Positions 12,899 through 63,004 of a DNA stretch of 64,000 nucleotides are shown one piece after another. The DNA comes from Botryllus schlosseri (taxonomy: Eukaryota). The notes below the pieces were generated by a model. That model had not been told where the DNA came from and did not search any database. It was given only the letters and a program-made list of their open reading frames with translations. A program made the translations under genes and the position numbers. Each line of letters begins with the position of its first letter. Positions within the stretch are counted from its first letter, which is position 1. The stretch is from positions 124,001 through 188,000 of the forward strand of contig CM119372.1 of assembly GCA_051294905.1 (NCBI GenBank), in the 5' to 3' direction.

Positions 12899-13139
12899 TG
12901 TGGAAGACCTCCTAATATAGTCGATGTAAAGAGATTCACGATAGTTTTTAGACAGCTTTATTTCCGCGTCCTCACGGCAGCAAGTTCAGATCAGAAGGGA
13001 GCATGCATTGTCGTGGGTCCACCAAGTGTCCATTTCACCTAGTCGGAGCTAGACACTTGGCGGCCCTAGAAATAACAGTACCATCACAATAGTAACTATA
13101 ACAATCATCACATACACCCCTAATGGGTGGGCTGTCACA
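12899..13139 (-). mobile_element. Second solo LTR of the same family, inserted in the LINE endonuclease
   Basis: Close direct copy of 11174-11413; 4-bp TSD ACTG; removal restores IMVQSPANQGGVGG in frame. Confidence 0.85.
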
Positions 13140-22044: not shown

Positions 22045-22236
22045 ATCTTGTGCATCGCCTACCTGGCCGTTCGAGCCAAAGAGTTCCAGATCCGGACCGT
22101 GTCCGGAGTATGGAATGGAGATCATCGTCTGTCCGACATTTGGAGAGTTCTTCTCATATTTGGATTCATCACTGCCTCGTTATGCCTGGCCGCCTCTCTC
22201 CTTTTAGTCGTAGCCTCATGTTTGTGCGGAAGCAAG
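22045..22236 (+). CDS. Exon A of four-pass membrane adaptor-like gene (end of TM1 and TM2)
   Basis: tttcag|ATC...AAG|gtcagt, phase 0-0; ILCIAYLAVRAKEF...VLLIFGFITASLCLAASLLLVVASCLCGSK. Confidence 0.85.
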
Positions 22237-22815
22237 GTCAGTGAGTCATTCGCATCGCTATATGTGAAAATTTGTGAAATGTTTCTTCATTCTCATTCTA
22301 ATTCTAATCCAATTTCCCGAAAATGCTACAGGAGAACTGTATTGTGTGAAACGAGCCAAGTTTGCTGTACAGTACATTTGCGATTCCCGTGCTTCTGAGA
22401 AGAACTCTGATTTGATGTGAACTTGATTCAATGTCCAAGTTTTTGTGAATTCAGTGATTCTTACTAAAATCGAATTCGGAAAGACTTGTGTAGCAATCAT
22501 TCTAATTCTAATCAAATTTGGAAATAACTTTGTAGCTGTAATTCTAATCTAATTTGCACAAGCTGAAAATTTTCTAGCTTTCCAAGTCTGATTTTGCCTA
22601 CTTGGCACGACTTCCTCAAGTGGCGGTAGTTTTACACTACTTCTACTTGACAGTTTGCGGTTACTTAGGCGAAACTAGGCCTTACTTTTTACTTGCTTGT
22701 AAATCACAACTTGTTCTTGTACTTGAGTAGAAATTTATGATGCTACTTGAGTAGCAAGTACTTTGACTAGCTCTGGTCTTTCGTTGCTGACCACGACCGT
22801 TGATACCGTTCTCAG

Positions 22816-23022
22816 GAGAAGTACTCCAAGATTCGCCTGGTCATCTCGTTTTGGTTTGTGGTATCCGTGACATCACTGATCAATAACGTGGGTGAAGCCA
22901 TCTTCATTGAAGCCATGCCAGAACTCAACTTTAAAAAGCATTCTCCCAGCGACAGCTTCAAGGACATCAAGTCAAACAACTTGCAGCTTTGGGTGCTCAC
23001 AGGACTTTTCGCTGTGTTTTTT
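22816..23022 (+). CDS. Exon B (TM3, loop, start of TM4)
   Basis: tctcag|GAG...TTT|gtaaga, phase 0-0; EKYSKIRLVISFWFVVSVTSLINNVG...LWVLTGLFAVFF. Confidence 0.87.
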
Positions 23023-23860
23023 GTAAGATCACTTCTTTTTTTGGACTTGTGCAAACTACTGGATTTTCAAAACTCGTAACTACAACTAGAACAACTTGCT
23101 TTTCAAAACATGCAACTACAACTGGAACTAGGCCTACTCATTTTTTAAAATAGGCTACAACATTTAGAACCGCTCAGTTTTCAAAACTCGCAACTAAACT
23201 AAAACTACTCACTTTTTACCACTCGCAACTACAACTACTCACTTTATAAATGCGCGACTACATCTAGAACTACTCAGTTTTCAAAACTCGCAACTAAACT
23301 AAAACTACACACTTTTTAACACTCGCAACTACAACTACTCAATTTTTAAATGCGCGGCTACATTTAGAACTACTGTTTTCAAAACTCTCTACTAAACTAA
23401 AACTATTCACTCTTTAACACAAGAACGACCAAGTGGCTTTTTTGACGCATTTTCATTTTTGAAGAGCTGGCATTCGGTCAAATCTTGCGCTGTTCGGCTG
23501 AAACTTCTTGACAATTTTTTATTTTATGTCTGCCACCTTACCACCATGATTTTCATCGCTCGTCTAGTACAACTAAAAAAGTTATACACAGAACTACCTA
23601 GAACTACCAAGTGACTTTTTTGACGCATTACAGTTTTTCTACCGCACGGCATCGTAGTTTCATATTCTTGTCACTGGTCATGTATCTGCCAAATGCAGAA
23701 AAGTTGTTAATATCGGCTCGGTCTAACTGTGTTACAACAACAACAACCCGTGTAATAGAAGGCAGTGCTTTTTCCTCTTTTTGAGTCATCAAGTCTCTCT
23801 AATATTATTTCTGAAGCTCACCGTGTTACAGGACATGACAACTGGAACGTGACACTAGAC

Positions 23861-26800: not shown

Positions 26801-26916
26801 TTGTTACTCATTTTTTACTCACTATTTCTACAACATTTATTGACGCTTTCGCGGGCCGCACGAAACGGGAGTTGCTGGCCGCATGAGGCCCGCGGGCCGT
26901 AGTTTGCCCACCCCTG
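23861..26916. mobile_element. Buster/SPIN-like hAT derivative with nested elements
   Basis: TIR CAGGGGTGGGCAAACT; TSD CACTAGAC / CACTTTAC (6/8). Confidence 0.75.
24895..26160 (-). mobile_element. hAT-like element with a GC-richer transposase fragment
   Basis: TIR CAGGCCTGTTTATTTTTGGA; perfect TSD CCCATGAC; minus-strand frameshifted peptide MTGLIC..RRQHNLI..MESVRPKFVDARLLSMKRVASWL. Confidence 0.8.
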
Positions 26917-28408
26917 CACTTTACCAAGCGTACATCTGTATTGGCCATATTATTATTTCAGGGTTGTACTGGGGCAAAGGGCCTTTGCTCTAGTCGACGA
27001 GATGGATCTTTGGGATGGGGAGGAGGGAGGGAGGAATCTAGTAAATTGCATGCATGTGAGGCCTGAGTGCATGATTGCGTTATGTTTATTCGGACCCTCA
27101 CGAGGATCAGGTTTATGGAATTCATGAACTTTCTATTGACATAAACAGTGAAAAAAGGTGAAGACTCGATAGAGATGATTTTGTTTTCATATATTACATG
27201 GTCAACAAGCCAGAAAAATAATTGGGTAAATGTCAGATGTGGATGCTGCTGCCACGAAATATTTGCACAAGGATGTCTCATATTTAGGCAAGGATAAGAC
27301 GGGACACCTCTTCTATAATATATATATTTGCCAAGCATAGTAATGTAAGGAATCTGATATAACCCATCTTGAAACAATGTTACGGGAATGTGGCTGTACG
27401 CTAGGGTTATGACTTGAAAGAAATTCAAAATTTTGTGTGTCCTATAGTCACAAGAGATGAACTTTTGTGTCCTGATTTCAAAATTAACAAAAACCTCCCG
27501 CACAAAAATTTTCCAGTTTTCACTGTATGAAGGATAGGCTTTTTTTGTAGATACAGACTATATAATATGCATACCGACTTATTTGAATTTAACTGACATA
27601 ATTCCAATTGCGAAGATTTAAAATGGTGTTTTGGTAAATTATGATTGCCCAGATTGAATTATTCCGATCGTTTTCTTGCTTACAGTCAAAATTAAATAAA
27701 TAATAAATAATTATTAATCTCGATTTCAGATGTAGATGTAGATATCGTATAATTTCTATTTGTCTGACACGAATCCAAGGGTTCGAAAAGGCGTAATTAG
27801 AACAACTCAACATATTTTCAGCGGTCTAAAAAACCGATTCGAGGAATTGGATGAAAATTCGAAAGTGCCATATCATATGTGGCTGGTGATACTGGGCGGC
27901 GGAATGTCGTTGTGAAAATGCAAATTGCAATGGTGAGCAAGGGTTTTCATAAATCACAATGCATTGGTTGCCAAGATAATATTACCGATTCTTAAAGCAT
28001 ATGTCAGAGTTCCTCAATCCAACATCCTCAACAAATCCAACTCTCAGCTACAAATTTGGAGATGATATGGTAAAACACTACGAAAACTTGGTACAATCCA
28101 CCAAGCCATAATTTCAAATGAAAATATTAGAAAACCGAGAATGGAGTGATGATTTTAAGTTATCTATGTGCTGTCCAGAGCGTGCCGCTCTTTCAGAAAA
28201 AATAGTAGATTACCACTAATCAACTAGCATAAACTTCCATCTCTACGCAATGCGAGATGGAGCTCAAGGGTATGATTCCGTACTTCCAAATCCCCAGATG
28301 GAGAGTAACTCTTGAGATATCATGCTTATTCATCGCAAATGGTTGTCAGGAAGCCTGGTATTCTAACCAGTTGTCTAGAGATGAAATATACTATAGCCCG
28401 ACCTATTA

Positions 28409-36900: not shown

Positions 36901-36911
36901 ATTGTATACGT

Positions 36912-44100: not shown

Positions 44101-44281
44101 CGATATGTCAGTAAGAACCAAGAATGGTGATGTGGATAAAGCGGATCTAGAGCCTACCCCAAATTTTCACAGAACGTGCTCAAATACCAAATGCGCGTCA
44201 GAACGACACTGATATGTTGCACCAAAAAACGGCGATCTTTGATAAGTGTTGGACAAAAGTATGTCTAAAATATTAAAAGTA

Positions 44282-46581
44282 CCGTAATTTTCCAACTGTA
44301 GTACGCCCCCATGTATAATACGCACCCTTAAAATGGCATGCAAGTTCTGGGAAAAAGCCTGTACCCATGTATAGTACACACCCTACATTCACAGTACATG
44401 AATAGCTGTGTTTTAGTACACGATGTTTTTCTGTTTTGCGATGTCACTGTCAAACAATCATGACATAAGCATCGCTAATCATTATGCAATTAACGGCATT
44501 GTCTCTAAACGATAGTACAGAGCAGCCAAAGCCTGCGAGGCTGGCGGCGCGATAGTGCGGGCCAGCGACACGACGTCTTGCGCACGGGGCCTATTACAGA
44601 TGCGATTGCTAATCATTATACAAGTAACGGTATTGCCTCTATACCAGGGGCGGGCAACTTCTCCAGTCGGCGGGCCGGATTAGGAAAATTAGGTACTTGG
44701 CGGGCCAGATTGCTGAATCGATAAATTATCCACATCTACAAGAAATAAATCGTATTTAATAAACGTATTTAAATGACAGCAATGTCACTTCAAAGCCATT
44801 TCTCGCCAATAATGACGAAGACAATGTGGATTTGAGAACAGCATTGTCATACAGGCGCCTTTATGTCTGCTTCTCTCTGATCAATTAACACACGTTGCAA
44901 TACTTGATTAAGATTTCAAGGCGTTCGATAAGCCCGGTACCCCAAATTTACCAACATATCAATTCATTAGGGTTGAGTACAGCGCAAATGCCGATAATGC
45001 AAGTCTTCTCGCTTCGGCGAACTTGCGCGTAAGCCCCATTCTCGTACGCTGTGCAGTACGCACACACGTATATAATAACATACAATCTGGAACGTAACAG
45101 CACTTCGTCAGCCCTTCTTCCCAAAACGTTGATATTGGGCCCCCCTAAACGCTAAACGAGCGAAGCGCGCAAAAATTTCTATAATTCATGATTGAATCGG
45201 TCAATATGATCGGGGATTGCATATATATTGTGATCATTTTTTATCATCTCTCTGTTCACGTAATCATATTTACCGGTAATAGAGCTGAGTGAGGTGTTTT
45301 GAAAAATGTAGGGCCCCTAAATATTAATTAAACATCTTCGGCGGACCGTTGGTATGACTTCGTTGCATCATGCTACGTCAAAAGATATTGAAATCCCCTA
45401 AACTTACAAAACTAAATGACGCACACGATTTCAAATTGATATATCTTTACTGGCTAATAATTTTTCCCTGATGTATGGCATTTGTCTTGTGGGGTTCAGA
45501 ACGCCAGGACAGGATCATTCGGCGCCAGCCATTTAGGCGCCAATGGACATTTAAACATATATGTATAATTGTATATAGAAGTTTTCGGTCAACACAAAGG
45601 CAGTCTTTTTCGGCCAAGGTCTTCTCGCTGATGCTCGTACTGCTGGCACACTTCTCGGAGTCACATGTGACAGCATGGCCTATAACTTCATTTGTCGTGC
45701 CGCGGTAATGGCTGACGCCAAAGTGTCCATTTCTATTAATAATGAAGGTAATTGTCAACATTAAATTGCTCCCAGCGCAAAACAAAATTGCAAAAGTTGC
45801 ATAAATTTATAAAGAAATACTTCATAATTCATTTAAATTCGCGAAATAATTTTGGCCCCCTTCGAGCTCGGCTCCCCCCAATTCGGGGGTTTGGGGTGCG
45901 GCAGTTACGGTCTTGCAAACAGTCACTAAAATTTGACTTTTAAGCAAGAAGTGGGGAATCTCAGCAGACCGGGGCCGTGGGCCACATCATGTAAGAGGGG
46001 AAACTGTCCGCGGGCCGGACAAAATCCCGTCGCGGGCCGGATCCGGGCCGTATGTTGCCCGCCTCTGCTCTATACGATAGTAGATAGCAGCCAAGGCCGG
46101 CGACGCGACATCTTGCGCACAAGGTCAGATGCGAATGCTCAGGCCAACGGTTATGTCGTGCACACTACGCCTGTTGGAGGTCTGACTGATAACGCAAGCG
46201 ATTATATTTTGCGCACATGGCCTGTCGATGAATCAGCGAGGATTGCCGCGCGCGCATTCAGGAGTCAATGAATGACCTAATTTCGCTCGCGTGCAAACGG
46301 CTAACCGAGTCAGCAGGAGATTGCGCTGTGCAGACGACTCTCGTAAATTGGCAATACGCTTTTTGCTAATTGGTGGCGCGTTACACTGATAATACGAATT
46401 ACTGGGCACGATGGCTGAAAGTGATGCGCGATTGGAAACAAACATGAAGAAAGGTGTGATTTCAGGTTTTTTATCGAGGGAGATTTTTTTCAAGCGTGTT
46501 GTTTCCATGTATAATACGCAACCCCCGATTTTAGGGCAAAAAATCGTGAAAATTTTGCGGATTATACATGGAAAATTGCAG
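44282..46581. mobile_element. TA-flanked Tc1/pogo-type MITE (CCGTAATTTTCC ends) with a nested Buster MITE at 44645-46067
   Basis: TA TSD and GTATAATACGCACCC subrepeats; nested element has perfect TSD CTCTATAC; sister copy at 54286-54966. Confidence 0.75.
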
Positions 46582-47021
46582 TAACTGTCAGCGCAATAGA
46601 CAATGATTTCCCATGCCGTTTGTAGATCTTTGTGTTGATTTTTAGCCTCCTTGAATGCATTTAATCAGAAAAAATTCAACATGCGTCATAAAAGCCACTT
46701 GGTACTTCTAGGTAGTTCGAAGTTCCGGTAATTCTAGTGTTAACACTCGCAACTACAACTAGTCACTTTTTTAAATGTGCAACTACATTTAGAACTACCG
46801 GTACTCAGTTTTCAAAACTCGCAACTAAACTAAAACTACTCACTTTTTAACACTTGCAAATGACTCACTTTTTGAAATGCACAAATATATTTAGAACTAC
46901 CCAGTTTTCAAAACTCACAACTAGAACTAGAACTGGCGACCTTCAAAAATCTGTAACCAGCTACAACATAACTAACTTGATTCAAGTCCGAAGCAACTCA
47001 TCAATTTGCATTAATCTAATC

Positions 47022-47442
47022 CAGTGGTTCCCAACCTTTTTCCACCCATGTACCATTTCATGGTTGTAAGTAGTGCTCGCGTACAACCTACATAAGTTAC
47101 GCATGCCGAAGGCGGCCAAATAATGATTCCACCGTGTTAAGCGACCGAAGATGGCGAAACAAAAAATAAACTGCCCATTTTAAAGCGCAGTACCGTATAT
47201 GATTTCTGTTGTGGATCCATTTGGAATTCTTGTGGTCAAATATATTGAAACTCTTTCCCGTAGGCCTTCATTGTTGGGATTGCCCCTACCCACAACGACT
47301 ATCTTACAGCGACGACCGCGGCTTCAAAAAACTCAAAATCAACCCCACCAGAACTAATTACTCCCTTCGGTCGAAAAAAAAAACAGAATCTACTCGCTTA
47401 CCACCTGGAAGACCTTCACATACCACAGTTTGGGAACCACTG
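47022..47442. mobile_element. Charlie-type MITE (same family as 4614-6508, inverted)
   Basis: TIR CAGTGGTTCCCAA; perfect TSD ATCTAATC. Confidence 0.88.
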
Positions 47443-47873
47443 ATCTAATCCAATTGGAGATAGAATCAGGATTTCAAAAACATGGGGTTTCCAGTTTGAA
47501 ACTCACCCCGTGCTGTTAGTAGTGATGACTCTAAACTAGAAATAGCTGCAAGAACATGACACAAGAGAACACAGGTATCACGATTCATGACAAATGACGA
47601 CATGTTTTCTAGTTAATCGGCAACAAAATTTTTGTTTAAATGAACAGCTAGTCTAGAAGTAGTCACTTTTTACAATCCGGAATTAGAACTGCCATTGGAA
47701 TTTACTCTCTTTTGAGAGCTAAAAACTAAAGTTATAACTAGAACAACTCAAAAAAGCATTAGTTAGCATTAGCAGACCGTCAACTAACTCGATTGGTAGT
47801 TTGTGCAAGTTGATTCTTAACGTAAAATTTACTTACGTTTTTGTGCATCCTTGACAAGCAAATTCATCTGCAG

Positions 47874-47967
47874 AAGTACATCTCTCTGGTTCTGGTGTCA
47901 TACTTGCGATTGTTGAAATACATGGATTCACCGAAGATCGGCATCACATTGCTCAACCAGGAGGACG
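47874..47967 (+). CDS. Exon C (end of TM4, start of cytoplasmic tail)
   Basis: ctgcag|AAG...G|gtaaga, phase 0-1; KYISLVLVSYLRLLKYMDSPKIGITLLNQED. Confidence 0.85.
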
Positions 47968-49699
47968 GTAAGATCGGAGGAGCAAAGTCTGTCGGAAGAG
48001 CAGACTCTGCCAAACTCGGTTTGTGAAATTTCTTGGCTTCTAGTCTACTTTCTTGTCCGCAAAGATATGGCCGGCTCCAATCAGGGCTCCCGGTAAACAT
48101 GTAAAAGTTCCCGCTTAAAATTGGTCTAGAGTTGGGACATCATCGAATTAGGGTAGAGCAGTGGTTCTCATCCTTTTTGTCTTTGCCTACCCCCTCTGGA
48201 CCGCCACGGACCCCCCTGACCCCCCAGTTTTAGTTCAAATTTAGCTCAATTATCGTGCAATCGGCATCTGTATTGTGCTAATATTAGCTGTAGGGTAGTG
48301 ATACAGAGTAACAAAATGACATTTCTTGAGAACAACATCATACTATTTCTGTAGAAATTGGGAAGACTTTCTGTAGCTTGACTACCTGAAATCCGCGGTC
48401 GTGTCTTGAAAATCCATGCCGTCAATCAGTTTCTGAAGTAGTGCCAAAACTCCATTTTCAAATAGATGGGTGGTGGCGAATGTAATAATCGCACGTAACG
48501 CTTCAGACGACACCTTTGCGTATGATGTGATTGAGAAACAGAACAGTTTCTAGTCAGCCTGGTCATTTCTATCTAGCAATTAAAGTGAGTTTGTTCAGTG
48601 GAATATTCCATCTCAGGCGGTCATTCTGTTTATTTGAGTTGTGAAATTTGAGCAGTTAATAACGACACTGCCTCGTGATTTCTTTAATTAAAAAATAGAA
48701 AATAGATTTTCAACCATTTTACAAATCTGGAGGTTTTGCTAACCCCTAGAAAATGCTTCACATAACCCCGGTTGAGAACCACTACGGTAGAGGGTTAGCG
48801 TTTCGTAAGACTGGGGTTGGGTTATTGCAGTGGCGGCTCGTGACAATATCGGGTGGTGGGGCAAGGGCTGCAAGCGACTTTTTATCAAGATGGCGTCACA
48901 ATGGCGTTTTCCAACGTAAACAAGTAACTTAATGATGGTACGGTAACATGAATTTCCCGGCAACAGTGATTTTAACGTATGTGCCATGAGAGGTCTGCCG
49001 GTGTGCTGTGACTTGAAGTGTGGTAACTGCGTAAACGGCGTAGGCCTACGGAACAAAGATTCAACACGGTTCATGTTCGCACTAGACCTGACTAATTATC
49101 TGCAGAAATGGAAATGACTATAACTCGAGAGATTGCGTGAGCCTAATTGGAAAGGTCAACGAGTTCGGACACATACGCAATTGCTATCTCATACATTGGG
49201 CCTGTCATATTGAATCCAAAACATTCTGAAGAACTAAGAATAGCAGCCTCGTAAATTCGGTCTCGGTACAGCATAGGAGATTTTGGCCTTGAAACTGGAG
49301 ACTGTAACACGACACATACGGCTTTATTACTGTCTATAGGTCTGCTGCGAATTCGCCTTTGGAAAATACATTACCGAATAAATACGTGGATGAAAGCCGT
49401 AAACTTAGTACACTGTTACATGACATCATCGAGAAGTAGCCTCATGGCCCTTTTCGGTATGGTACACTGTCAAAATTAATGCGAACAGACCGAATTTTGC
49501 GTAAAATTTACTGAGGAATAGGCTGATCAAGTGTTCAGCTGTTAGCCGCCATCGAAAACGAAATAGCTATCGCGCTTGACAGTGGGTTGTAAGTAAGCAA
49601 ATGGCTTGAAGGCCACAATTTCATGGGGAAATTGACATTGGAGAATATAATATCGAAGTAAATATTTGAATGCACACTGAGAATGATATCACCATCTCA

Positions 49700-50350
49700 T
49701 CACCTATCTCAGTATGGAACACAGTTAACGTTACCACACATACACCGGCTTTTGCGTGAAATCCGCAATGCGTTGTAGGCTAAAGTGTCAGATCAGAGCA
49801 CATCTCTACCATACTCGGCCCTGATAACAAAATTACTGCCCTAATCATTGAGTGTCAACCTTGAGACTTGGCACAGCGTTCGATACTAAAATCAAGACAT
49901 ACCGTGCAAAAGCTTATGACGGATCTAGGTAAGGAGCATCGTTAAAATCGATAGAGACCAATACCGGCTTTGCGTAAAATCTGTTAGCGATAAATGACGA
50001 GTCAGCTCTCTCTCGACTTAGGAAACGAAATTACCACTAACATAGTTCAGTGACAAACTTAAAACTTGGTACAGCGTCCGATAGCCTACTAACATTAAGA
50101 CTTACCATGCCAAATGTCATAACCAATCTCAGTATTGAACATCGTCAAAATCAATGGATACCAATACCGGCTTTTGAGTAAAATCTGTTTGCGATACATG
50201 ACGGATCAGCACACACTCAACTTCGGAAACGGAATTACTACCCTAAACTTTGAGTAGAAACCCTGAAACTTGGGGCAGTGTTAAATACCACCATCACGAC
50301 ATGATATACCAAGTTTCAAGAGTTTTCATGGTGTGAAACACCATCAAAAT
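49700..50350. repeat. Degenerate tandem units of about 200 bp (AAACTTGG-ACAG core)
   Basis: Core recurs near 49863, 50062 and 50266; the same family occurs as an inverted arrangement at about 13900-14420. Confidence 0.65.
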
Positions 50351-51342
50351 CGACTGATACCAGCAAAGGTCGACTAAACGCATATGACGGTAACCGAGTT
50401 CAGATATAGATACGATTGTTACATCACACCTTTGGGGCACAGAGCTATTGTGCCCCGGTTGCTCGGTAATTTTATGAATAGGAGAGAGTAAATCACCGTT
50501 TCTTTATTGTGCGCGGCTTTGAGAGAATAGACAGTGAAAGCTTGTTACGAGCGCTACCGGGGCAAGCCCCGGCTAGGCATTCGCAAAGCGAAAACACAGA
50601 AGAGAATTCGATTTTCGCAGAGACTTCGCTATATATGGGCATTTACAAGCGAAAGGATAAGAAGAATACGATTTTCGCTGTGATTTCTGTATATATAGAT
50701 TGCTGTGCGTCTATAAATGGTAAAGAATTGTTATTGAACAGAATTTTAGGTGGGGCAATGCCCCAGTTGCCCTATAGGACGAGCCGCCACTGGGTTATTG
50801 TAAAATTAGGGTACTGTAAGATTGGGCTAAGGTTATCGTAAAATTAGGTTTGATGATGTGGGTTCCATGAAATTTATGTTGGGTTAACGTAAGCAGAGTG
50901 GGACAATTAGATGATTCTAGTTGTCTAATTAGAGCGAAATCTAATTGACAAAAAATGTGTAACCGTGTACCTAGATCTAGACTAATTTGGAAAAAAATGT
51001 GTGGCTATCATTCTAATTGTAATCTAATTTGGAAAAAATGTTTGATTATCATTCTAATTCCGAATGTGAGAATTTTCTAGTTGTCCAAGTCTGCTAGTAA
51101 GATTAGGGTTGGCCTTGTGAAAATTGCGATTTACGGCAACGTTGGGTTGTCGCAGGATCAGCACCAGAGTGATTACAGCTCCTGTGATACCATAACTCGA
51201 AGGCAATTATAAACTCCATAAATGTTATCATGTTCACTGGAAACCCTGAGTGGTGACAGTCATGTTGTTGTGGATGAGAAGGTAGACTTGACTCTTGATG
51301 TGTGCCATTTCTTTTTGTTCGAAAACCGCTTCCAACATGCAG

Positions 51343-51433
51343 AGTCCGAAAAAAAGAAGACCAAACCCAAAACAGGAGATTCGTCCGTTCCGGAACTACC
51401 GCGTCGCGAAGTTGTCACTTCTCCCAGGCGCAG
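51343..51433 (+). CDS. Exon D
   Basis: atgcag|AG...AG|gtgcga, phase 1-2; ESEKKKTKPKTGDSSVPELPRREVVTSPRR. Confidence 0.82.
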
Positions 51434-52217
51434 GTGCGAATATCAGATTTTTCATCTTCACTGATAACCAGGGTTCGAACCAAATCACAAGATTTCGGGT
51501 CACAAGTCGATTTGACTTTTTTAGTTTTGACTCGAGTCAAGTCGAGTCATTTTCAATTCACCACCGAGTCAAGTCTGACTCCAATTCAGGGAGTAACGGG
51601 TTCAGTCCGAGTCATAGTGTTACGACTCAATTCCGAGTCCAAGTCATAGAGCTCATTATCGAGTTGAAGTCGGGTTCAACTGACTGTTGTGTAACCCTAG
51701 GGCGATATCGAAGGACTCAGATCCATAATACTCATTCTAAACATGTTTTTGCAAATAGATGAAAGACAATTTCTGGGCCTATTTGTCAATTGTCGGTCCT
51801 GATACACGAGACTTTATTAAGTCACAGAGAATGTGTCGAGTCATGCGCAAAGACTCAAGTACAAGTCAAGTGAATACACAGATTGATTCGAGTCGAGTCA
51901 TTTTCCATTTTTGAGAAGATGACTCGAGTTAAGTAGAGTCTACGAAAAATTGTGACTCAACTCATTACATCCATGACGTTAACCCCGATCTGTTCAGCCA
52001 ATATTTAAAAAATATCTAGCTTAAGAGAATTTTGTATTTATTTTTCCATATAAATTTAGAATTTTCTACTAGTAAATAGCTATGCCACTGCAGGTAGGAA
52101 TTGAGCCAAATTCGATGTGCAGCGTTTTTTTAGATAACAGAACAATTTTGTCAACTAGCCAGTAAACATAAAAAGAAGTTATTTCTGAATAACCCTATCG
52201 TTAATTCCCTTTTGCAG

Positions 52218-52376
52218 GAGTGTTGCACACGATCCGATTTACGAGAATACCAATCCAGGATCTTCGGGGCCAGAGAAAAAGGAATCTTTCATCGACGTCG
52301 TCAACGAATTGACAGACGACCCGACTATTTTCGACAATATCGGGAAGCCGAAACCTCTTCGCCGGATCCCAATGAG
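52218..52376 (+). CDS. Exon E (DPIYEN); frame absent from the ORF track
   Basis: ttgcag|G...AG|gtggga, phase 2-2; SVAHDPIYENTNPGSSGPEKKESFIDVVNELTDDPTIFDNIGKPKPLRRIPM. Confidence 0.85.
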
Positions 52377-52806
52377 GTGGGATTGCTTCTGCCTGTGCTT
52401 GGGCCAGAGTTGGACGACTAGAAAATTTCCAGCTTTTCGAATTAGACTGCGGTTACTATGATACCATCCCTTACACATAAGATCGGAATAACTCAATTCA
52501 CAAAGGAAATAAAACAAAAGTCAAGCACCGTTGATATGAAGTCGGAATTGGTTCTCATAATCACGAGAACGGCAAATGACTGTATAGCAAGGTTGGCTCT
52601 TTTCTTACGATGCAGTTCTTACGTAGCATTTCACAAAAACCAGACATTAGATTAGAATGGTAGTGGGAGCATAGGAACATTTCATAAATTGGAATAGAAG
52701 TAGAATACCTGTACTGGCATTTCGCCATGGTCGATACCAACTTATTTGATGTCCAAGTTTTCGTGAGTGGAGTCATTCTAATTCTAGTTGGGCTGATGTA
52801 TTGCAG

Positions 52807-52994
52807 ACGAAATCCTCTTCCCCCACCTCGCGGGGAAGCCATCTACATGAACCAGACCAATGTGAGCGACACGCCCGGTGCGCCTTACGCCAAAGTCTCC
52901 AAACCGTTGAAGCGATCTTCCTCGTTTTCTGGGCCGGCTGTTTACGATCTGCCTCCAGACGAGCCAAAGACTGATAACGGGAAGGATCAGAAAA
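52807..52994 (+). CDS. Exon F (PLPPPR, IYMN, YAKV, VYDLP)
   Basis: ttgcag|A...A|gtgatt, phase 2-1; RNPLPPPRGEAIYMNQTNVSDTPGAPYAKVSKPLKRSSSFSGPAVYDLPPDEPK. Confidence 0.85.
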
Positions 52995-53052
52995 GTGATT
53001 TACTGTGCCGTGACGCAACGACTGCTGGTTTATGTTTGGCGTTTCTTTTCAG

Positions 53053-53121
53053 ATGCCTATCCAAAGGAGAGTGACGGTTCACACGACACGGGATTCAACT
53101 CAAAGTCGTCTGTAACCTCGA
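53053..53121 (+). CDS. Exon G (after a 58-bp intron)
   Basis: tttcag|AT...A|gtgagt, phase 1-1; AYPKESDGSHDTGFNSKSSVTS. Confidence 0.83.
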
Positions 53122-53439
53122 GTGAGTTGAAAAGCAGTTGTCACAGCTCGAGATGACCGGCCCCAGCCTTGTACAAACTAGCAGGCTGGTTCGTTGACGG
53201 TCGTCGAAATTAGATTTTTCTGAGTTGTTGTGCTCCTAGTTCTGGTTTGTGGATTTTCAAAAGTGAATAGCTAGTTGTAGTTGTAGGTGCAGATTCTGAA
53301 AAAGGAGTGCTTCTAGTTCAATTTCTAGTTACGCATTTTGTAAAGAGATGAGTTCTAGCTCCAGATTTTAAAAATCTAGTTGTGTGTTTTGAAAAGTGAA
53401 TATTTCTAGTTGTCATTTAAAATCCAGTAATATGTACAA

Positions 53440-55820
53440 TAGGGCTCTTCAAAAATGACTTTTTTTCTCAAATCGCACTGGCTACTTGATAAAATTGTTA
53501 GGTTACCTAACTTAAGCCTACACACCAAATTTGGTTCAATTCCAACCAGTAGCCGCATTGCTACAGGAGATGAAATTTCTATTTATTATATAAAAAGAAA
53601 TAACATAAAATTATAAAATTTTCTGTTCACCCCATGAAAGTGTAAGGTTGTCTATAGAAACGATGAGAATAGGTCACAGTAAATACTATTTTATTCATAA
53701 TCCAAATTTTTCGACGGTGATAACTCCGCTTCCACTGATTGGAATTGAACCAAATTTGGTGAGCATCGTTTCTATAGACAACCTAACACTTTCGTGGGGT
53801 GAACAGAAAATTTTCTAAATTTTTGTTATTAATTTTTATATAATAAATAGAAACTTTCACACTTTACGCACTGAAATTAACAACCACGAAAAGAAAATGA
53901 ACTGATGATAATCACGTAAAATACGGGTAAATACATTACTCAAGTGATAGTCGATATCCAGCATCCATATTCTTTGTCGGTCCAATGTAGATTTCTGAAC
54001 GATACCATTTGATATTATATGATATTCTATCATTGGCTATGCGGCACTCCTATAGTACTCTCACAGGCGAATTATAAGACTAATGGGTATCATGACAGAT
54101 CTTATTCCTGTCAAAAGTTATCGTCCTCTCTTCATGTCACCCTCCACATTCGATGAATACCATCTAATTGTATCCATATATCGTGGTAAACCACCAATGC
54201 TGTGACAAAAAAGGGGTTCAGGTGATATTGAAAGACCAGAAATTGACTAATAATGTGCTTTAGAAGCTCAGTGGGTTACCATTTACCGTAATTTTCCGAG
54301 TATAGTCCGCCCCCATGTATAATATGCACCCTTAAAATGGCGTGTGAATTCTGGGGAAAAGCCTGTACCCGTGTATAGTACGCACCCTGTATTCTCAGTA
54401 CATGAATAGCGAATAGTTATGTTCTAGTATTCGATGTCATTCTGTTTTGCGATGTCACTGTTGAACAATCATGACATAACGATCGCTAATCATTATACAC
54501 TAAACTGCATTGTCTCTAAACGATAGTAGATAGCAGCCAAAGCATGCGAGGCCCGCGACGTGATAGTTCAGGCCTGCGACATCTTGCGCACGAGGCCTAT
54601 TACAGATGCGATTGCTCAGGCCAACAATTATGTCATGTGCACCAGGCCTCTTGGAGATGCGACTGTAGTGTGTAGGCCAGCGATTACATCTTGCACACGA
54701 GGCATGTTGTATATGCAATTGTTCATGGCTGTCGTTGGACGTGATGAATTAGCGAGGACTGACGCGCGCACGTGCAGCAATCAATGACCTAATTTCGCTC
54801 GTGTACAAACGAAAAATCAACTCAGCAGGAGATCGCTTGCTGTTGTGCAGTGCAGACGCTAATTGGCAGCATGCTTCTCGCTAATTTAAAGATGTATTTC
54901 GAGAGAGATTTTGTTCAAGGCTTGTTGTACCCATGCATAATACGCATTATACATGGAAAATTACGGTAGTTTCCCTGAAGCCCGCAAGTTTCATAAAAAG
55001 CTCTAGTATCAACGCTTATGTGAAGTACCAGAAATGCTTTTTCAACTCATAAATACTATTCATTGGCATAGCCCATTCTCAATTGCAATCAGCACCATTT
55101 AAACGCCCTGGATCAGTCACTGTCAAGTAGCAGAGAAATATTCGAACACTGAGCTGCTGAAGAATGCAATTGATGTGTGATGTCTCTGCGGATGAGATTT
55201 TAGGAATGGCGACTTTGCAATCAGTAAAATCTTCGAATCAAGGCGGAGAGACATCGGTCTGCCCTGCATAACTGGGATAGATTTCGTGAAATCTAAATTG
55301 GTCCGACAAAAAATACTTCTAGGTATGATTATCACTTGAGAAATATATTCACCCGTATTTTACCTGCTTGTCAGTTCATTTCCTTTTCGTGGTCTTAAAT
55401 ATCAGTGCGTAAAGTACTCTATTCGAAAATTATCTCACCATCCTTTTAACGTGGCTGTTTCAATGAAGTGGACTAATTTCCAGCTAATCTGTGTCATATC
55501 TTTTTTTCGTTTATCGGCAATGTCTTCATCCAAACTTCAGTATAGGCCCTTGTCAAGAGCAAAACAAATGGAAAAGGCATCCCTGCCTCTTCAGCCATAC
55601 CCGGAACACGATTTTTGGTCATGTCAATGCGACAAAATTGGTCGCCGTGAATACTATTATTTCAAAAATGACCGAAATTTCAATTTGACTGACCTCGGCA
55701 TCTACTGGTTGGAATTGAGTCAAATTTGGTGTGCAACGTTTTTTTTAGGTACGGTAACCTGACGATTTGGCAACTAAGTCGATGAAATTTGAACAAAATA
55801 GTTTTTCTTGAACACCCCTA
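53440..55820. mobile_element. Composite member of the TAGGG fold-back family, with unique core and nested pogo-type MITE
   Basis: TSD ATGTACAA / TTGTACAA; the core is shared in inverted orientation with about 33460-34920. Confidence 0.78.
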
Positions 55821-55872
55821 TTGTACAAGTATGTCTCTTTGTTGATACAAATTGTCACTTACACCTTCGCAG

Positions 55873-55970
55873 GTGTCAACGAGCAAGAGGCCGACATCGA
55901 GCAAATGGAAAGACTCGCAGACGAGCTGCGCAGGAAACAAGAGGAGCTCGACAAGTCTGGCAACTGTGAT
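55873..55970 (+). CDS. Exon H (short predicted coiled coil)
   Basis: tcgcag|GT...GAT|gtgagt, phase 1-0; VNEQEADIEQMERLADELRRKQEELDKSGNCD. Confidence 0.87.
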
Positions 55971-56934
55971 GTGAGTTTTGGAATGCTTTCCGACTGAAGG
56001 AATGGCGTTTGTGACCAAACTTGGACAACTAGATCATTCTGCTCTTGTAATTAGACTATTTAGAGCGAAATGCTTATTATGTTATTCTAATGTAATTTGT
56101 AAAGCGTTTTTTTGCTCTCATTTTGATTCAAATCTCATTTCTGGTATTCCTGAATCTGCTGCAGTATAGCTGTATCATACGAAACGAACTATGCTCGCTG
56201 TACAGACATTTGATATTCTCATGCTTGTTTATGTATTCCTAATTCTAGTTCAATTTGAAGAAACTCTGTAGCCATCATTCTATTTAAGTAACCGGTTCGT
56301 GGTAAGGAATTTGAAGATTGCTTGTAATACAACTTCCTTTTTGTTTAAAATTTAATAAACTCAAAAGACTTTTCTTGTATTGAAAGCGTAATTGTAATTC
56401 TAATCTAATTCGGATCAGATGAAAATTTTGTAGTTGTACAACGCTACTTGTAACGCACAAAGGCAGAGGTGGTCAAAGTAACCGGCATTCATACTGAAGT
56501 AAAAGTAACCTACATTTTTGCTCAATTTCAAGTACAAGTAGCGATTTGCAAGATAATATAAAACTGCATCTACAACGAAAGCTCTGAGAAGTCGTCAAGT
56601 AGTTTGAAAAATCGATTCGGTCGGGAGTTGCTGCATTTGCTTCTAGCAGTTCATCGCTACTTGTTGCGACAACACAAAATTACGTTGACACTACAAATAG
56701 AGCACTTTTTTATACAATTAATAATCAAAAAATTTCCCACTGTAAGCACTATTTTTTTAAAGTATTAATTTTCCACTCTGATAACTTTGCTTCTATGGGT
56801 TGGAATGGAGCCAAATTTTTTTATGCATTGTTTTTCGGCAATGTTGCAATTTTACTAAGTAGCCGGTAAAATTTTTAAAAAGGTAGTTTTGAACGGTCCT
56901 GCGTGTTAGCTTATTGGATTCGCATGTTTCTCAG

Positions 56935-57031
56935 TCAGCTACCGCGGAAAACTTGACACAGATGGCTCTGAATGCATTGAAGCTATCAGAAAAAATCCTG
57001 CATGACGTCAAAACAAATGGGGGCCCATCAG
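56935..57031 (+). CDS. Exon I
   Basis: tctcag|TCA...G|gttgga, phase 0-1; SATAENLTQMALNALKLSEKILHDVKTNGGPS. Confidence 0.82.
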
Positions 57032-57403
57032 GTTGGACATTTCTTTCTTGGTCATGTGTAACAAAATTGGGTAATTACCTAATTCTAATCTAATTTGTGA
57101 AATGTTTCTTTGCTCTCTTTTTAATACCAGTCTAATTGTGGTTTTCCTGAAAATGCAACAGGAACGAGCGGAACGAGCAAAGCTTGTACAGATATTTGCC
57201 ATTAACGATTTGATATGAACTGAACTTGATTTTTGTTGTCTTTCTTTCCGACTTGGAATTTATTTCAATTTGCAAGTTTTTGCGAATTCACTATTTTTAA
57301 TTCTTATCTTATTTGGAAAAAACTGTAGCTATCATATTAATTGTAATCTGTTTTGGAAAAGCTATTACAAGTTTGGCGTCTGACGTTGATTATTGCGCCA
57401 CAG

Positions 57404-57545
57404 TGACTGCGGAAAAGCGTCCCATGACAGAAGAGAACGTCAAGTTGGCAGAAGAGTTTTTCGAAGAGCTTGAGAACGATCCGACCTCTCTCAGTTCGAA
57501 CCCCGTTGAGGAAATGTTTCGCATGTACGGCAAAGATTTATGCAA
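57404..57545 (+). CDS. Exon J
   Basis: ccacag|TG...AA|gtgaga, phase 1-2; TAEKRPMTEENVKLAEEFFEELENDPTSLSSNPVEEMFRMYGKDLC. Confidence 0.85.
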
Positions 57546-58193
57546 GTGAGATTTTCCATCATTTTTCAAGCCGACTTGTACAAACTACCAATACAGTTAG
57601 TTGGTGGTCAACTATCTACTGGTTTATTGAGTGACTCTATTTCTAGTTTAGTTTGCATGTTTTGAAAAGTGAGTAGTTCGAATTCTAGTTGTAGTTGGGT
57701 TTTCAAAAAATGATTAGTTCTAGTTCTAGTTGCGGATATTGAAAAGTATGTGGTGCTAGTTCTAGTTCTAGTAGCGAGTTTTGAAAAGTGAGTAGCTCTA
57801 GTTCTAGTTCTGAATATTCAAAAGTGAGTAGTTGTAGTTCTAGTTGCAAGTTTTGAAAAGTGACTAACTCTAATCGTGCATCTTGAAAAGTGAGCAGTTC
57901 TAGCTGCACATTGAAAAATTTGCTGCCGAACAACTAAACTTGTGTCGTCGTTTGCCGTGAATCGTGATACTGATGCTCAGTTGTATGCAGTTCTTACTAG
58001 ATCAGCGTGATCACTACCAACATTGGCCATGGAGCTGGTTTGGGGGGGGGGGCTTAGGTCAGAACCATTTCAGATTTGCTCTGATGTTCGTGTGGAAGAC
58101 CGATCCGATGCCTTGTGGTTATAGTTTGTACAAATCTGATCCAAGGCGCCAATCTTACTTGGTCTGTTGCATATAACTATTTATTTTGTTCAG

Positions 58194-58345
58194 TCGTAAC
58201 CCAGAAATGGTGAATCGCTACCTCATGTCATACAAAGCCCTTCAGGAACACAAAAGTGCCAGGCAAATGTCGATGCCTCCGGAAACAGGAATCGAAACCA
58301 TCGCGACCCACGAGCAGCTGCCCTGGCATTCGATCATGAATCCCA
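58194..58345 (+). CDS. Exon K
   Basis: gttcag|T...A|gtgagt, phase 2-1; RNPEMVNRYLMSYKALQEHKSARQMSMPPETGIETIATHEQLPWHSIMNP. Confidence 0.86.
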
Positions 58346-58417
58346 GTGAGTTGATACTAGGAGGAGGATAGGTGGATACTACTCTGCTCTGATCTCAATT
58401 GAGTATTCATTCTAATG

Positions 58418-59605
58418 CAGTGGTTCCCAACTGGGGGGGAATTCCCCCTTGGGGGAATTTTGAATTTTTTAGGGGGGGATCCGGCTTTGTATCGGAAGAT
58501 ACACGGGGTTCGCAAGGTTTTTACATTTTTATGGTATAGAACTTTCAAGTTGAAATTAGTTCTTCACAATTGTAGGCTACGTTTTTAGATAGTTGGATGT
58601 TACATTGATACCTATTACACCCCCTGATAAAGTGAGGCTCGCGAGACGATTTCGTTGTGCCCTACTAAGCAGGGTTTAACCAAGTCACAAAGCTCTGAAT
58701 CACAAGTCAACATCACTTCATGGTTGTGACTCATCAAGTCAAGTCGAATCGTTTTCAATTCACCACCAAGTCAAGTCCAAGTCATCGAGCAGAGGATCAA
58801 GTCCGAGTCATGATATTATGACTCGAGTCCAGCAGTCCACGTCATTGTGTTGACTGCTCAGTTTCAAGTTAAAGTCTTGTTAAACCCACTTTTATAACTC
58901 TGTTTGATGATATCGAATGGTTCGCATTTATAATATACTAATCTTTCTCACTTTGAACAGTTTCTGGTGGCATTTTAAAGTACCAGTACCAATAGACGCC
59001 ATCTAAAAAGGGTGGTTACTTTACTGTTTTTCGAAATTACAATGAAATGACTCGGTTTGAGTCATGCACAATGACTCGAGTCCGAGTCGAGTCGAGTCAT
59101 TTCCGTATTTTAAGAAAATGACCTGAGTCAAGTCGAGTCATCAGAAAATCGTGACACGAGTCTGACTCAAGTCGAGTCATGACTCGAGTCATTACAACCC
59201 TGCTACTAAGCAGGAAAAAGTGAAGCCGAATTCAGCACAAGGTCGCTGGTGAAATTGTTTAACTTTTTAAGCCAACATATGAGCTAACGTGAAAAACATA
59301 CCAAATTCATTGATTCAACTCAAGGCCATAGCAAGCGGACTTGGTGATTTATATTTCTTCGGCGGTTACCTGACCAGTAAAAAACAGGTCACATTTGACT
59401 GTACTTTACCACGGTGAAGTGCGGTTCGCATTCGCCATAGTTCAGACATATCTGAATATGTTTCGTTATTAATTGCTCAGTCAACAAATGGTTTTGCGTT
59501 AAAAAGTACCTTTTTTAGTCACACGCAACTTTTTCGTGGGGGGGGGGATTTTAGCTCAAATATCGGCCAAGGGGGCCACGAGACGAAAAAGGTTGGGAAC
59601 CACTG
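58418..59605. mobile_element. Charlie-type MITE with nested GACTCGAGTC-rich hAT MITE (58670-59202)
   Basis: Perfect TSDs TTCTAATG (outer) and CTACTAAG (inner). Confidence 0.87.
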
Positions 59606-60601
59606 TTCTAATGAATCGATTCCAGCCTGCCTGAGTGATTCCCGAGTTTTTCGACCATGCCTCTATCATTACACTTTGTGACAATGCTCTGTGTTGATGA
59701 TGACTTCACAGATACGCAGGGTCTTAATGAATCGAGTCCGACTGAAGTCGCGATTTTTTGGTGACTCGACTCGAATCAATAATTGTATTAACTCGGCTTG
59801 TACTCGAGTCATTGTGCGTGACTCGAACCAAATCAAATGACTCGAGACTAAGACGGCTAAGATAGACATTTCATCGTAACTTAGTAGAATAGTATAGTTA
59901 CCACAATATGATTGGTATTTCGTCTAGCAGTCCTGATACTTGAAAATAGACCTAGAAACTGTTAAGACAGAGGAAAATTACGATATTATGAATGTGAGTC
60001 ATTCTATATCACGCGAGCGGAGATGAAAAGAGTGGGTTGAACTGGATTGAACTGAAACTGAACAGTGACGATAATGACTTGTACTCAAACTTGAGTCAAA
60101 ACACGTTGAGTCGGCCCTCTATTACCTAACTTGGACTCGGTCTTGATTCGGTGGTCAATTGAAAATGACTCGACTTGACTTGAGTCAAAACTATAAAAGT
60201 GAGATTGACTTGTGACTTGATTGCAACCCTGCAGCTATGTCATTCCAGTAACGTGCGTCGCTCTGTACTAAGTTTGCATGTTGCGATAGGACTAGTCGTG
60301 GTTTCAAGGCTCCCACAGTGGAAAATTTAATCTAAACTATATTTTTCGTTGACATATTACCTCTTTGTAGCAAGGAGCGTATCGTTTGAGTACTCAAAAA
60401 TATAATCTCTCATAACTCAACTCGAATCATAAGAATTAATATTAGGGCTATGAAGCGCAATAAAGTAAGCATTTTTGAAAAAATACCACACTATCTTTAT
60501 TGTGATGTACAACTGGGACGCAAATCCGCGATATTCAGATTGGAGTTGTTGAATGATTGTGCTCATCCTTAGTGACTATATTCGACCCGCTGTCATTTCA
60601 G

Positions 60602-61057
60602 GCGAAGCCGTCCCATCGCGACCACATCCAGCCTCTTTTTCGGACCAGCCTCACCTAGGTTTCAACCACGCGACGCCCGCCATGAGCCAGCCCTTCCATT
60701 CGTTGAGTCACGCTCAGTCCGGGCCGCCGCCAGCCAACAGATTCTTTCCAATCGACTATCCAATGCAGAACTCTGCTTCTTATAACGCAGAACCTCCCAA
60801 TACGTCTGTGGATAACAGGAAACACTTTCACAATAACGACGCACATTCCAACTTGATGAACGGACATGATTTTCACTCCGCCCACAACTTGACGTACCCA
60901 TACAGCGGCAAGACGTTTGACGAATACTCTTTTGAAAGCGAATGTCCATACAGCTGTTGTTACTCTTATGATGATTACGGGCCGATGTTTGATGACTATG
61001 GTTCTTATCCGCCCAATTATTTCTCCGACCCAAGAAACGGGGATTTCATGTACTCAG
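60602..61057 (+). CDS. Exon L (His/Asn/Pro-rich, then Tyr/Asp-rich low-complexity region with PPNY)
   Basis: tttcag|GC...G|gtgtgt, phase 1-1; 152 open codons within ORF 60553-61116. Confidence 0.88.
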
Positions 61058-62721
61058 GTGTGTACGTTTGTATCTCTGAAATGGATTTAAAATGTATGCA
61101 AATTCCGGATATGTAATGTACGAGTTCACACATCAAGCATGTACATTAGGAGTGTTCAAAATTGACTTTTTTTCTCAAATCGTACTGCCTGCTTGATAAA
61201 ATTGTTAGAAGTGGAGTTATTTTAGTTGAAAAATTTGGATTTGAATAAAGTAGTATTTACAGTGCCAAATTCTTTAAATATTTATTGTAGTTTTGCCCAC
61301 CGTCAATGCTATGATTTGAAATCTCACATTTTGAACATCAATAACTGGTTTCTACTGGTTCGAATTGAGTCAAATTTGATGGGCATCGTTTCTATAGGGA
61401 ACCTATCATTATCGTGGGACTAGCAGCACTGTGAAGATATCATCTATAGAATTACCTGAAACAAATGTATTGCCCAGTTATAATAGATCTTGAATACAAT
61501 TTTACTTGACTACAATAATTAGGGTTTTGTGACGGCAAATTTAATATCCGATTTCCCCGCCAAGTACTGGGTCACGCTCATTGGCTTCATCAGCCAACAT
61601 CCGAGTGTGAACTCTTTTATCAGAGATATCCAGATTTGATGAAGTCACAACGCTCGTTGGAGGCCGTCATAGCGTCACACTGCTCCGACATGAGTTGGAT
61701 ATTTTTGGATCATAATAATGCTTGTGTCAAATAGATATTGCTGATAATTATCCGAGCAAAGCGCATTAGTTGAGTTCCAAGTTCAACATTGATATAAATA
61801 TTCATGTAACTGCTACATTCTCAAAGTCTCCGATTTACAAATCCTGTCTTGATAGGGTACGGAGTGGAAGTTACAATAAGCGAAACGTAAGCTGTAACGC
61901 GACAGCTGTCAAATAATATTCGTTTTTATGATATGAAAATTGGAATAATGATCATTATTATTATTTTCCTCCATATGCGTGTTGCACAACTTTTTTGTCT
62001 TCAAATAGATGTCGACTAGGGTAGGCGAGTCACCGTCCCAATTTGAGATATGAACATAGACCTTCAGTGAACGATTATCTGAGGTGTGCAATCGATTGAA
62101 AATCGAATGTAGGATCATTGTCATGGTTCTGGCAGTTTGCCAAAGTATGGAAAATAATTTTCTTACTAGACCATACTTACACATTTCCATATTCCATACC
62201 GAAATTTCGTTCTATGCCCTGCCGAAAAGACTATTTTGTTTTTTCAAATCAAAAATTTTGAACCCCCAATAACTCCACTCTACCGGTCGGAATCGAGTCA
62301 AATTTTCTATGCCTCATTTTTTAGGCAGCGTAACAATGTCATCGTGTTTAGAGTAAAATTGAAAAAATGTTGTTGTTTTTTAATCTATTTAAGATTTTCC
62401 AACCTGAATAACTTCGCTTCTACACGCTGTAACTGAGCCAATCTCTATGTGCATCGATTTCTAGCCAACCTTACAATAATTTTGAATAGCTAGTATAATT
62501 TGAAAAGAAAAGTTATTTTTGATCGTAACTTCTTTCCAATTTTTACAGGATAGTTGATAATATCATTGAATTGGCTGAAAAATACAGTACGTTGAAGTCG
62601 ATATGTCTGATACTGAAATTTTAAAAGCTTACTTTGATCTCAACATTAGACGGGTCTTTCCCTGGACTGTGTGTGCATTGACCCATATTACTGTGAATAA
62701 ACAATATGATGATATGCCCAG

Positions 62722-63004
62722 GTCCCAACTGGTTCCCGATGGGCGACCCCACCTATTCCATGGACCCGCATCACAACCCGTACCAAGCGTGGAACGAGCC
62801 GGCCCCTCCTTACACGGAGCAGTCGTCGAACAGATCGAGGCAAAGTAGCCGCGAAACCAAGTCGAGAACAACGAGCCGCGCCAAATCTGGGGATTCCGGC
62901 CGATCGAGCGAGCGTGCCAGCCGGAGAGACAGTTTCCGAAGCCGTAGCTTGCCGAGTCTGCTCAACGAAGATCTGTACTCTGAGGCTTCTACTTTTCAGC
63001 GCAA
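62722..63004 (+). CDS. Exon M (Arg/Ser-rich, RSRSLP); gene probably continues beyond the window
   Basis: gcccag|GT...AA|gtcagt, phase 1-2; PNWFPMGDPTYSMDPHHNPYQAWNEPAPPY...RRDSFRSRSLPSLLNEDLYSEASTFQR. Confidence 0.8.

Follow-up and report, generated by a model that had tools for sequence, protein, structure and literature searches.

The subject of this study is a gene in a 64,000-nucleotide (nt) stretch of the Botryllus schlosseri genome (assembly GCA_051294905.1, contig CM119372.1, positions 124,001 to 188,000 of the forward strand), hereafter the window. An initial annotation made from the letters alone had joined 13 exons between window positions 22045 and 63004 into one gene for a four-pass membrane protein with a long tail resembling phosphotyrosine adaptors. 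We find that this spliced gene is real, and both transcript contigs and hydropathy support the placement of the four-pass core and the long, low-complexity tail in a single gene. The core is likely that of a divergent, distant LAPTM/Pasiflora-type tetraspan, and we lean, with confidence falling a little short of even, toward a LAPTM-like protein whose tail of approximately 720 amino acids (aa) would serve as a phospho-regulated docking scaffold.

A single spliced gene across a 24.9-kb intron

All 13 exons lie on the plus strand with GT-AG ends, compatible phases and no in-frame stop in the splice model of the window, as originally proposed, and this model reproduced all 12 of the contig offsets checked. 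We compared window positions 21960-23090 with the contigs of four runs, which come from three studies; none of the runs is on record as RNA, and we take the contigs to be RNA-derived because they are spliced. In every one of the four runs the contig match stopped at 23022 and was followed by 30 letters equal to window 47874-47903. This junction had been set beforehand as the test of a single gene, and its recovery rules out two separate genes. The loose letters past 23022 fit exon 3 of the window and not the paralogous copy described below, and the 22236 to 22816 junction appeared as a GT..AG joint in three of the four runs. Across the tail region (44101-64000, where the contig pieces are those among the matches listed), tail exons were bridged by single contigs of 2220 nt (run X1) and 1750 nt (run X3).

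Exon 1 in the window is the second coding exon of the gene (22045-22236; contig pieces, GT..AG joint and frame) and encodes the second half of transmembrane helix 1 (TM1), the first outer loop, TM2 and a cysteine pair. Exon 2 (22816-23022; contigs, frame and alignment) contributes a short basic inner loop, TM3 with an invariant tryptophan, the second outer loop and the first half of TM4, which is then cut by a 24,851-nt phase-0 intron (23023-47873; loose contig ends in all four runs). TM4 ends in exon 3 (47874-48018; offsets and conservation), which also carries a conserved SYLRLLKY boundary motif and the start of the tail. Its length of 145 nt is the only one that fits the contigs, so the window model comprises 759 codons rather than the roughly 742 first counted; the 94-nt exon 3 (donor at 47968) that gives 742 codons is contradicted by the offsets in the contigs checked and may at most represent a minor isoform. 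The donor at 47968 is a consensus GTAAGA and looks the stronger of the two; it lies 51 nt 5' of the one used in the contigs, and its use would remove 17 residues in frame.

As a separate observation, the single-cell run X21 reached a depth of approximately 22 near 47946, in exon 3, with almost none over exons 6-7 (the raw-read depth over the exon 6-7 bin, approximately 0.2 in X21 and 0 in X23, was not used as evidence). The exon 3 depth could stem from oligo-dT that primed where exon 4 opens A-rich, from a short isoform terminated by the stop soon after the donor, or from reads of the paralog.

The tail is encoded by the remaining exons, among which the boundaries of exon 4 and of exons 7-10 were set by the offsets summed over exons 3-5 (395 nt) and over exons 7-10 (406 nt), together with splice signals and frame. 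Exon 4, so placed at 51343-51433, would supply a basic stretch with PELPRR, a PxxPxR motif (51390-51407). Exon 5 (52218-52376; X3 contig piece) holds DPIYEN (52231-52248), the sole tail motif aligned to a relative, and exon 6 (52807-52994; X1 and X3 pieces) holds a cluster of PLPPPR, AIYMN, PYAKV and VYDLP. The exons positioned by offsets and phase then continue with a 69-nt Ser/Gly-rich exon 7 (53053-53121), exon 8 with a charged helix-like stretch (55873-55970), exon 9 (56935-57031) and exon 10 with an acidic helix-like stretch (57404-57545). Exon 11 (58194-58345; X3 piece) precedes exon 12 (60602-61057; X1 and X3 pieces), which is Pro/His/Asn-rich and then runs into a Tyr/Asp-rich block containing PPNY (61009-61020). 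Exon 13 (62722-63004; X1 and X3 pieces) encodes an Arg/Ser-rich block with RSRSLP (62937-62954) and is not the last exon, as the contigs continue past it.

The proposed exon chain therefore stood, whereas its completeness did not, because transcripts extend both 5' of 22045 (three of four runs) and 3' of 63004. On the 5' side the contigs reach 17 letters beyond exon 1, and the 495.5-Mb genome contains this string at two places, one of them approximately 770 nt before the window. There the contig string and frame define an upstream coding exon on the plus strand (G000:C2:122628-123230, equal to L001:916-1518), of which only the last 18 nt are RNA-supported; it carries an ATG after in-frame stops, spans 201 Lys/Glu/Asp/Asn-rich codons and has a phase-0 GTGAGT donor. 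This exon also encodes a charged N-terminal tail, a cysteine cluster and the part of TM1 that is absent from the window, and it likely holds the start codon. Window positions 1-22044 (plus strand) are most of a first intron of approximately 22.8 kb. On the 3' side contigs run 149, 290 and 1101 nt beyond 63004, and three predicted exons (L006:1783-1903, 2463-2569 and 3102-3213) would close the frame; the longest contig would finish 761 nt past the predicted stop, approximately 120 nt before an AATAAA. With the upstream exon and these three predicted exons, the full protein is predicted at approximately 1073 aa.

The four-pass core, its relatives and its family

Hydropathy of the full model revealed exactly four peaks (residues 192-210, 239-257, 273-291 and 325-343), and the highest Kyte-Doolittle value in the window-encoded tail was 0.35. 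The four-pass call thus held. The first hydrophobic segment of the window had also been counted as a complete helix, but it is the second half of TM1 only, because the Kyte-Doolittle value of the first 19 window residues rises from 0.96 to 2.25 once the upstream exon is joined. The loops measure 23, 11 and 30 aa; the two outer loops (23 and 30 aa) contain no sequon, the middle loop is basic with two cysteines, and cysteine clusters adjoin TM1 and TM2. Approximately 190 hydrophilic residues precede TM1 without a signal peptide, taking the inferred start codon. With no signal peptide and a middle loop this short, both termini are probably cytosolic; positive-inside counts alone are indecisive on this point. 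The 723-aa tail is rich in serine, proline and charge and is likely cytosolic and disordered. Its residues 399-515 hold four tyrosines bracketed by a pair of PxxPxR sites, and a Tyr/Asp-rich block lies near residues 810-900 and an Arg/Ser-rich block beyond 900.

An exhaustive search with exon 1 (64 aa) against 1.84 billion representatives, in which distant orthologs would be missed, returned two matches at E<=0.001, so that the lineage-specific origin first suggested is at most tentative. P0121 and its cluster mate P0123 count as one protein. Judging from the protein ends, P0121 most probably derives from P0123 through a frameshift, and for this reason we do not treat it as a short-tailed ortholog. 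P0123 aligned to the gene model with 32.6% identity over 310 columns (pairwise E 1.6e-46). A metagenome scan confirmed four of 155 candidates, the four loci being 99.4-100% identical and counted as one species. This species provides the third lineage, L032, whose gene, in a model without RNA support, has six identical exon phases (0,0,0,0,1,2) and a 230-aa basic N-terminal tail. Identities within the four-pass core among the three lineages were 43, 39 and 43%, with the tryptophan at the start of TM3 invariant and the SYLRLLKY block at the end of TM4 conserved. Word-index searches provided weak negatives, with none of 24 candidates at E<=0.01 for exon 2 among longer proteins and only P0121 itself for P0121 among 430 candidates of 132-422 aa. 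No published description of such a protein appeared among the papers listed from a mainly non-subscription literature.

The tail is single copy in the host genome, as searched with exons 6 and 12. Exons 0-3 and flanking intron are duplicated approximately 846 kb away (G000:C2:968538-976091; L010, L011); a third exon 1 match, on contig C1, was not credible (E 1.45). The duplicate keeps an open frame with a stop just past the exon 3 donor position, and the 74 kb that follow it are devoid of tail exons. Part of its cysteine cluster is lost, and it looks relaxed because its ratio of nonsynonymous to synonymous substitution (dN/dS) is 0.6 and polar changes fall in TM4. The intron that cuts TM4 spans 24,851 nt in the gene as opposed to 902 nt in the duplicate and 613 nt in L032, and its size is therefore likely the product of a recent expansion.

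Pfam assigned no curated match to the exons or to the full-length homologs P0121 and P0123 (homologs scanned at E<=10, nine window exons and three other exon pieces at E<=1, with HMMER filters that drop weak matches). These scans returned no match to the Mtp profile (PF03821) for the homologs or the separate exons, to DUF4728 or DUF7027 for the homologs, or to the MS4A, tetraspanin, MARVEL and claudin profiles for exons or homologs; matches below cut-off to SR-25, PFF1_TM, MASE1, Keratin_2_head and CCSAP were rejected as compositional. Searching the genome with DUF7027 and DUF4728 yielded only four sub-threshold places elsewhere, none gene-like, and with Mtp none of six candidates, a result that is uninformative because the control was likewise without match. 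P0123 had no match in a PDB sequence search, and a full-length match to a characterised family, named beforehand as an outcome that would overturn the proposal, did not appear in the searches run.

Embedding neighbours offer a lead. The core of P0121 fell closest in the ESM Atlas, where scores under 0.9 count as a lead only, to three animal clusters without a family (0.90), followed by DUF4728/DUF7027 (0.89), DUF4728 (0.87), DUF7807 'putative LAPTM' (0.87) and Mtp/LAPTM4A (0.87, with 172 of 256 features in common). Nine of the ten best family matches belong to one family or clan, although in the DUF4728/DUF7027 clusters the family is carried by 12-28% of members, and exon 1 alone gave no usable match. 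The guess of a LAPTM-type protein thus persists as a lead from Atlas neighbours, while membership proper is not borne out by any Mtp profile match. A preprint (10.1101/2024.04.13.589362, in part) places Mtp and DUF4728 proteins in a tetraspanin-pasiflora family with LAPTM4A/B, and two motifs define the Pasiflora group, PW where TM3 begins and VxS where TM4 ends (PMC4582180, in part). Our protein shares with this group four helices and, given the inferred start codon, the lack of a signal peptide. Strict Pasiflora membership nonetheless fails, because the TM3 tryptophan is preceded by phenylalanine or isoleucine in the three lineages, and the residues at the TM4/C-tail boundary are L-V-S here as opposed to L-I-S in the two relatives, near matches only.

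Structure prediction was compatible with a tetraspan bundle without discriminating among families. A first AlphaFold model had a predicted local distance difference test score (pLDDT) of 45.5 and its Foldseek search was uninformative; a model of P0121 built on a 10-row alignment contained four long helices (mean pLDDT 60, predicted template modelling score 0.38), with 10-residue blocks at pLDDT ~65-78 over most of them, and Foldseek returned no match for it at E<=0.001. The VIA fold search, in which Z values below ~13 are unspecific among helical bundles, placed a designed bundle at the top (Z 11.7) and a chain of the dystrophin-glycoprotein complex, which we take to be sarcospan, next (Z 11.1, root-mean-square deviation 3.3, 152 aligned), then chains of the synaptophysin complex (9.9), PRPH2-ROM1 (9.5), CD20 (9.2) and Fc-epsilon-RI (9.0), amid soluble bundles. 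A four-helix membrane bundle would be a point of likeness to MS4A proteins (CD20, Fc-epsilon-RI beta), tetraspanins, MARVEL proteins and connexins (Z 8.4-9.9, in the generic range), and in contrast to these families our protein has no Pfam match, no immunoreceptor tyrosine-based activation motif (ITAM) and no large cysteine-rich outer loop. Fc-epsilon-RI beta and connexin 43 are precedents for tetraspans with phosphotyrosine tails.

The tail as a putative docking scaffold, and its rivals

All of the tail motifs listed in the initial annotation were found on the plus strand at their expected places. YxxP motifs are preferred by SH2 domains, PxxPxR by SH3 domains and RSxSxP by 14-3-3 proteins. 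YXN is the Grb2-binding motif of LAT-type adaptors (PMC3342071, in part), and PY motifs bind Nedd4 (PMC3214061, in part). The adaptors LAT, NTAL, LAX and PAG resemble our protein in having no ectodomain, a non-enzymatic tail that bears YxN motifs alongside proline-rich sites, and juxtamembrane cysteines including CxxC; here the ectodomain is minimal, two YxN sites are present and a cysteine cluster precedes TM1. Unlike the adaptors, which have a single helix (PMC3342071, in part), it has four, and its cysteines lie ahead of TM1; the likeness is one of layout rather than of demonstrated sequence homology, and phosphorylation here is only predicted.

The evidence that carries this reading is mainly a single site. 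DPEYVN of P0123 paired with DPIYEN in both BLAST and MAFFT alignments, and shuffling the P0123 tail 100,000 times produced DPxYxN in 26 cases. We also compared motif counts with 5000 global and 5000 local composition-matched shuffles. RSxSxP was above chance (2 observed, 0.08/0.10 expected, p 0.002-0.005) and PxxPxR borderline (2 observed, 0.42/0.47 expected, p 0.07-0.08), and the five motif classes were jointly rare (p 0.0002-0.0006) as a set picked after viewing the sequence. In the sixth exon of the L032 model, which matches a tail exon, YDxP had a p of 0.045. Conservation of the motif tyrosines, which the initial annotation had made a test, was seen for DPIYEN, whereas the other tyrosine motifs could not be aligned in relatives and occur at chance, so that the phosphotyrosine-adaptor proposal is upheld at one site.

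Several observations weigh against the docking scaffold. YxN (2 observed, 1.5/1.9 expected) and YxxP (2 observed, 2.5/3.1 expected) stand at chance level, PPxY (1 observed, 0.23/0.35 expected) is not above shuffles, and the second RSxSxP falls in a predicted exon; most of the listed motifs are individually no commoner than chance. YxN alone appeared in 12% of P0123 tail shuffles (p 0.12), the DP of DPxYxN was singled out post hoc, and the YxN of L032 (p 0.44) was not aligned with that of the window by MAFFT. Tail-to-tail similarity with P0123 was no better than in shuffles, 180 of 1000 of which scored as well. Exons and homologs lack a Pfam match, including any domain in the six tail exons scanned, the VIA matches stay within the generic helical-bundle range, and phosphorylation, binding and localisation are all predictions.

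Were the tail a phospho-regulated scaffold, both termini would face the cytosol and palmitoylation of the cysteine clusters could place the protein in membrane microdomains. Having no ectodomain, it would take its signal from a junction complex or a receptor acting as partner rather than from a ligand of its own. A Src/Syk-type kinase might then phosphorylate the membrane-proximal tyrosines, chiefly that of DPIYEN, which could bind a Grb2-type SH2 domain next to SH3 proteins docked at the flanking PxxPxR sites, and the distal PPxY and the RSxSxP sites may tune turnover through a Nedd4-type ligase and 14-3-3 binding, respectively. A bolder form of this proposal, which we offer as speculation and doubt as a whole, would make the protein an ascidian four-pass equivalent of LAT/PAG, in which a LAPTM-like tetraspan gained a modular, exon-encoded tail that organises receptor signalling in a restricted cell type, with the conserved Grb2-type site joined by further SH2/SH3, WW and 14-3-3 sites and the tailless duplicate as a possible decoy. 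Should the tail prove to be a phosphotyrosine hub, a LAT-like membrane adaptor would have arisen here independently, and the protein would be a candidate for the adaptors still missing from tunicate tyrosine-kinase signalling; the DPIYEN tyrosine gives a direct handle on this idea. If it is not, annotation of an orphan tetraspan family is still useful. The gene has RNA support and belongs to a small family without a Pfam label or a named database relative in the searches run, in the sister group of vertebrates, and the predicted length of approximately 1073 aa compares with 169-317 aa for LAPTM/Pasiflora-type proteins in the papers cited.

The best-surviving rival, which we consider rather unlikely, is a LAPTM-like endo-lysosomal sorting protein whose tyrosines and PPxY are trafficking and ubiquitination signals for AP adaptors and Nedd4-type ligases, with the tail governing cargo turnover instead of signal relay. 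LAPTM4A, LAPTM4B and LAPTM5 (Mtp, PF03821) likewise have four helices and cytosolic ends (inferred here), their C-tails bear YXX-phi, PY and dileucine motifs (PMC3214061, in part), and LAPTM4B-35 has a PPRP extension that binds SH3 domains (PMC5161753, in part). LAPTM clusters, among them LAPTM4A/Mtp, are the nearest named clusters in the Atlas (0.87), and our tail holds three Yxx-phi motifs and one PPxY, all at chance frequency. Nevertheless, the tail has no dileucine, its sole PPxY lies approximately 500 aa from TM4, no PY motif occurs in the stretches of tail seen in the two relatives (133 and 132 residues), and the conserved motif is YxN rather than Yxx-phi. The full-length homologs also lack a match to the Mtp hidden Markov model, and LAPTM4B has 226-317 aa as opposed to approximately 1073 aa with a tail of approximately 720 aa.

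We regard as distinctly unlikely a structural tetraspan of the junction or cortex, comparable to Pasiflora or to the tetraspan subunit of the dystrophin complex, in which the bundle would sit in a junctional array and charged Ser/Arg-rich tails would tie it to the cytoskeleton. Pasiflora proteins are septate-junction components with motifs at the start of TM3 and the end of TM4 (PMC4582180, in part), the same two places that are invariant here, and Pasiflora, Fire exit and Ikebana (DUF4728, DUF7027) share with our protein the tetraspan without a signal peptide, the tryptophan at the TM3 start, a Ser-Tyr block at the TM4 end and Atlas scores of 0.87-0.89. In addition, the best natural membrane fold match was the dystrophin-glycoprotein complex chain noted above. 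On the other side, that score lies in the generic range and behind a designed bundle, the PW and VxS motifs are not matched exactly (F/I-W and LxS instead), the second outer loop is longer than the first, and Pasiflora proteins have only 169-258 aa as opposed to the long tails at both ends here.

It is improbable, in our estimate, that only the four-pass core is functional and that the tail is mostly a fast-evolving disordered extension with incidental motif matches. The tails are unalignable between lineages with most motif counts at chance, and the tailless duplicate keeps an open frame; however, P0123 matches DPxYxN, at least 10 tail exons are kept in frame over more than 15 kb and spliced in several studies, and the duplicate itself looks relaxed.

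The immune or recognition role raised initially found no positive evidence, and an allorecognition determinant or fester-family-type co-receptor is highly improbable: although the host is an ascidian and Botryllus co-receptors use tail tyrosine motifs, the FF/FcoR proteins are type I Ig-family products of paired multigene clusters with ITIM (the inhibitory counterpart of ITAM), hemITAM or core-2 motifs (PMC12582321, in part) and differ in every tested feature from our protein, which has one full copy, no ectodomain, no ITIM, ITAM or core-2 pattern in its model and just 0-2 differing letters per exon piece among the matches listed.

Other features of the region

Within the long intron, the six open reading frames scanned of 21 with at least 90 aa had no Pfam match that would indicate nested genes. 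The first intron contains a LINE-like (long interspersed nuclear element) retroelement in several frames on the minus strand (window 10006-12985; RVT_1, E 3.6e-11) and a C-terminal fragment of a hAT transposase, also on the minus strand (window 1553-1855; E 5.1e-6). Elsewhere, two inverted open reading frames of the Bcl-2 family (L013:3972-4445, plus strand, and L013:8047-8520, minus strand; Pfam Bcl-2, E 3.5e-15) are identical over 474 of 474 nt, reflecting either a very recent duplication or a duplication in the assembly. A stolidobranch ascidian is the likely host by a single-exon LIPT2 gene (L016:4973-5824, minus strand) approximately 900 kb away on the same contig, which had a match at 88% without a name and, as its best named matches, Styela clava (58%) and Ciona (56%).

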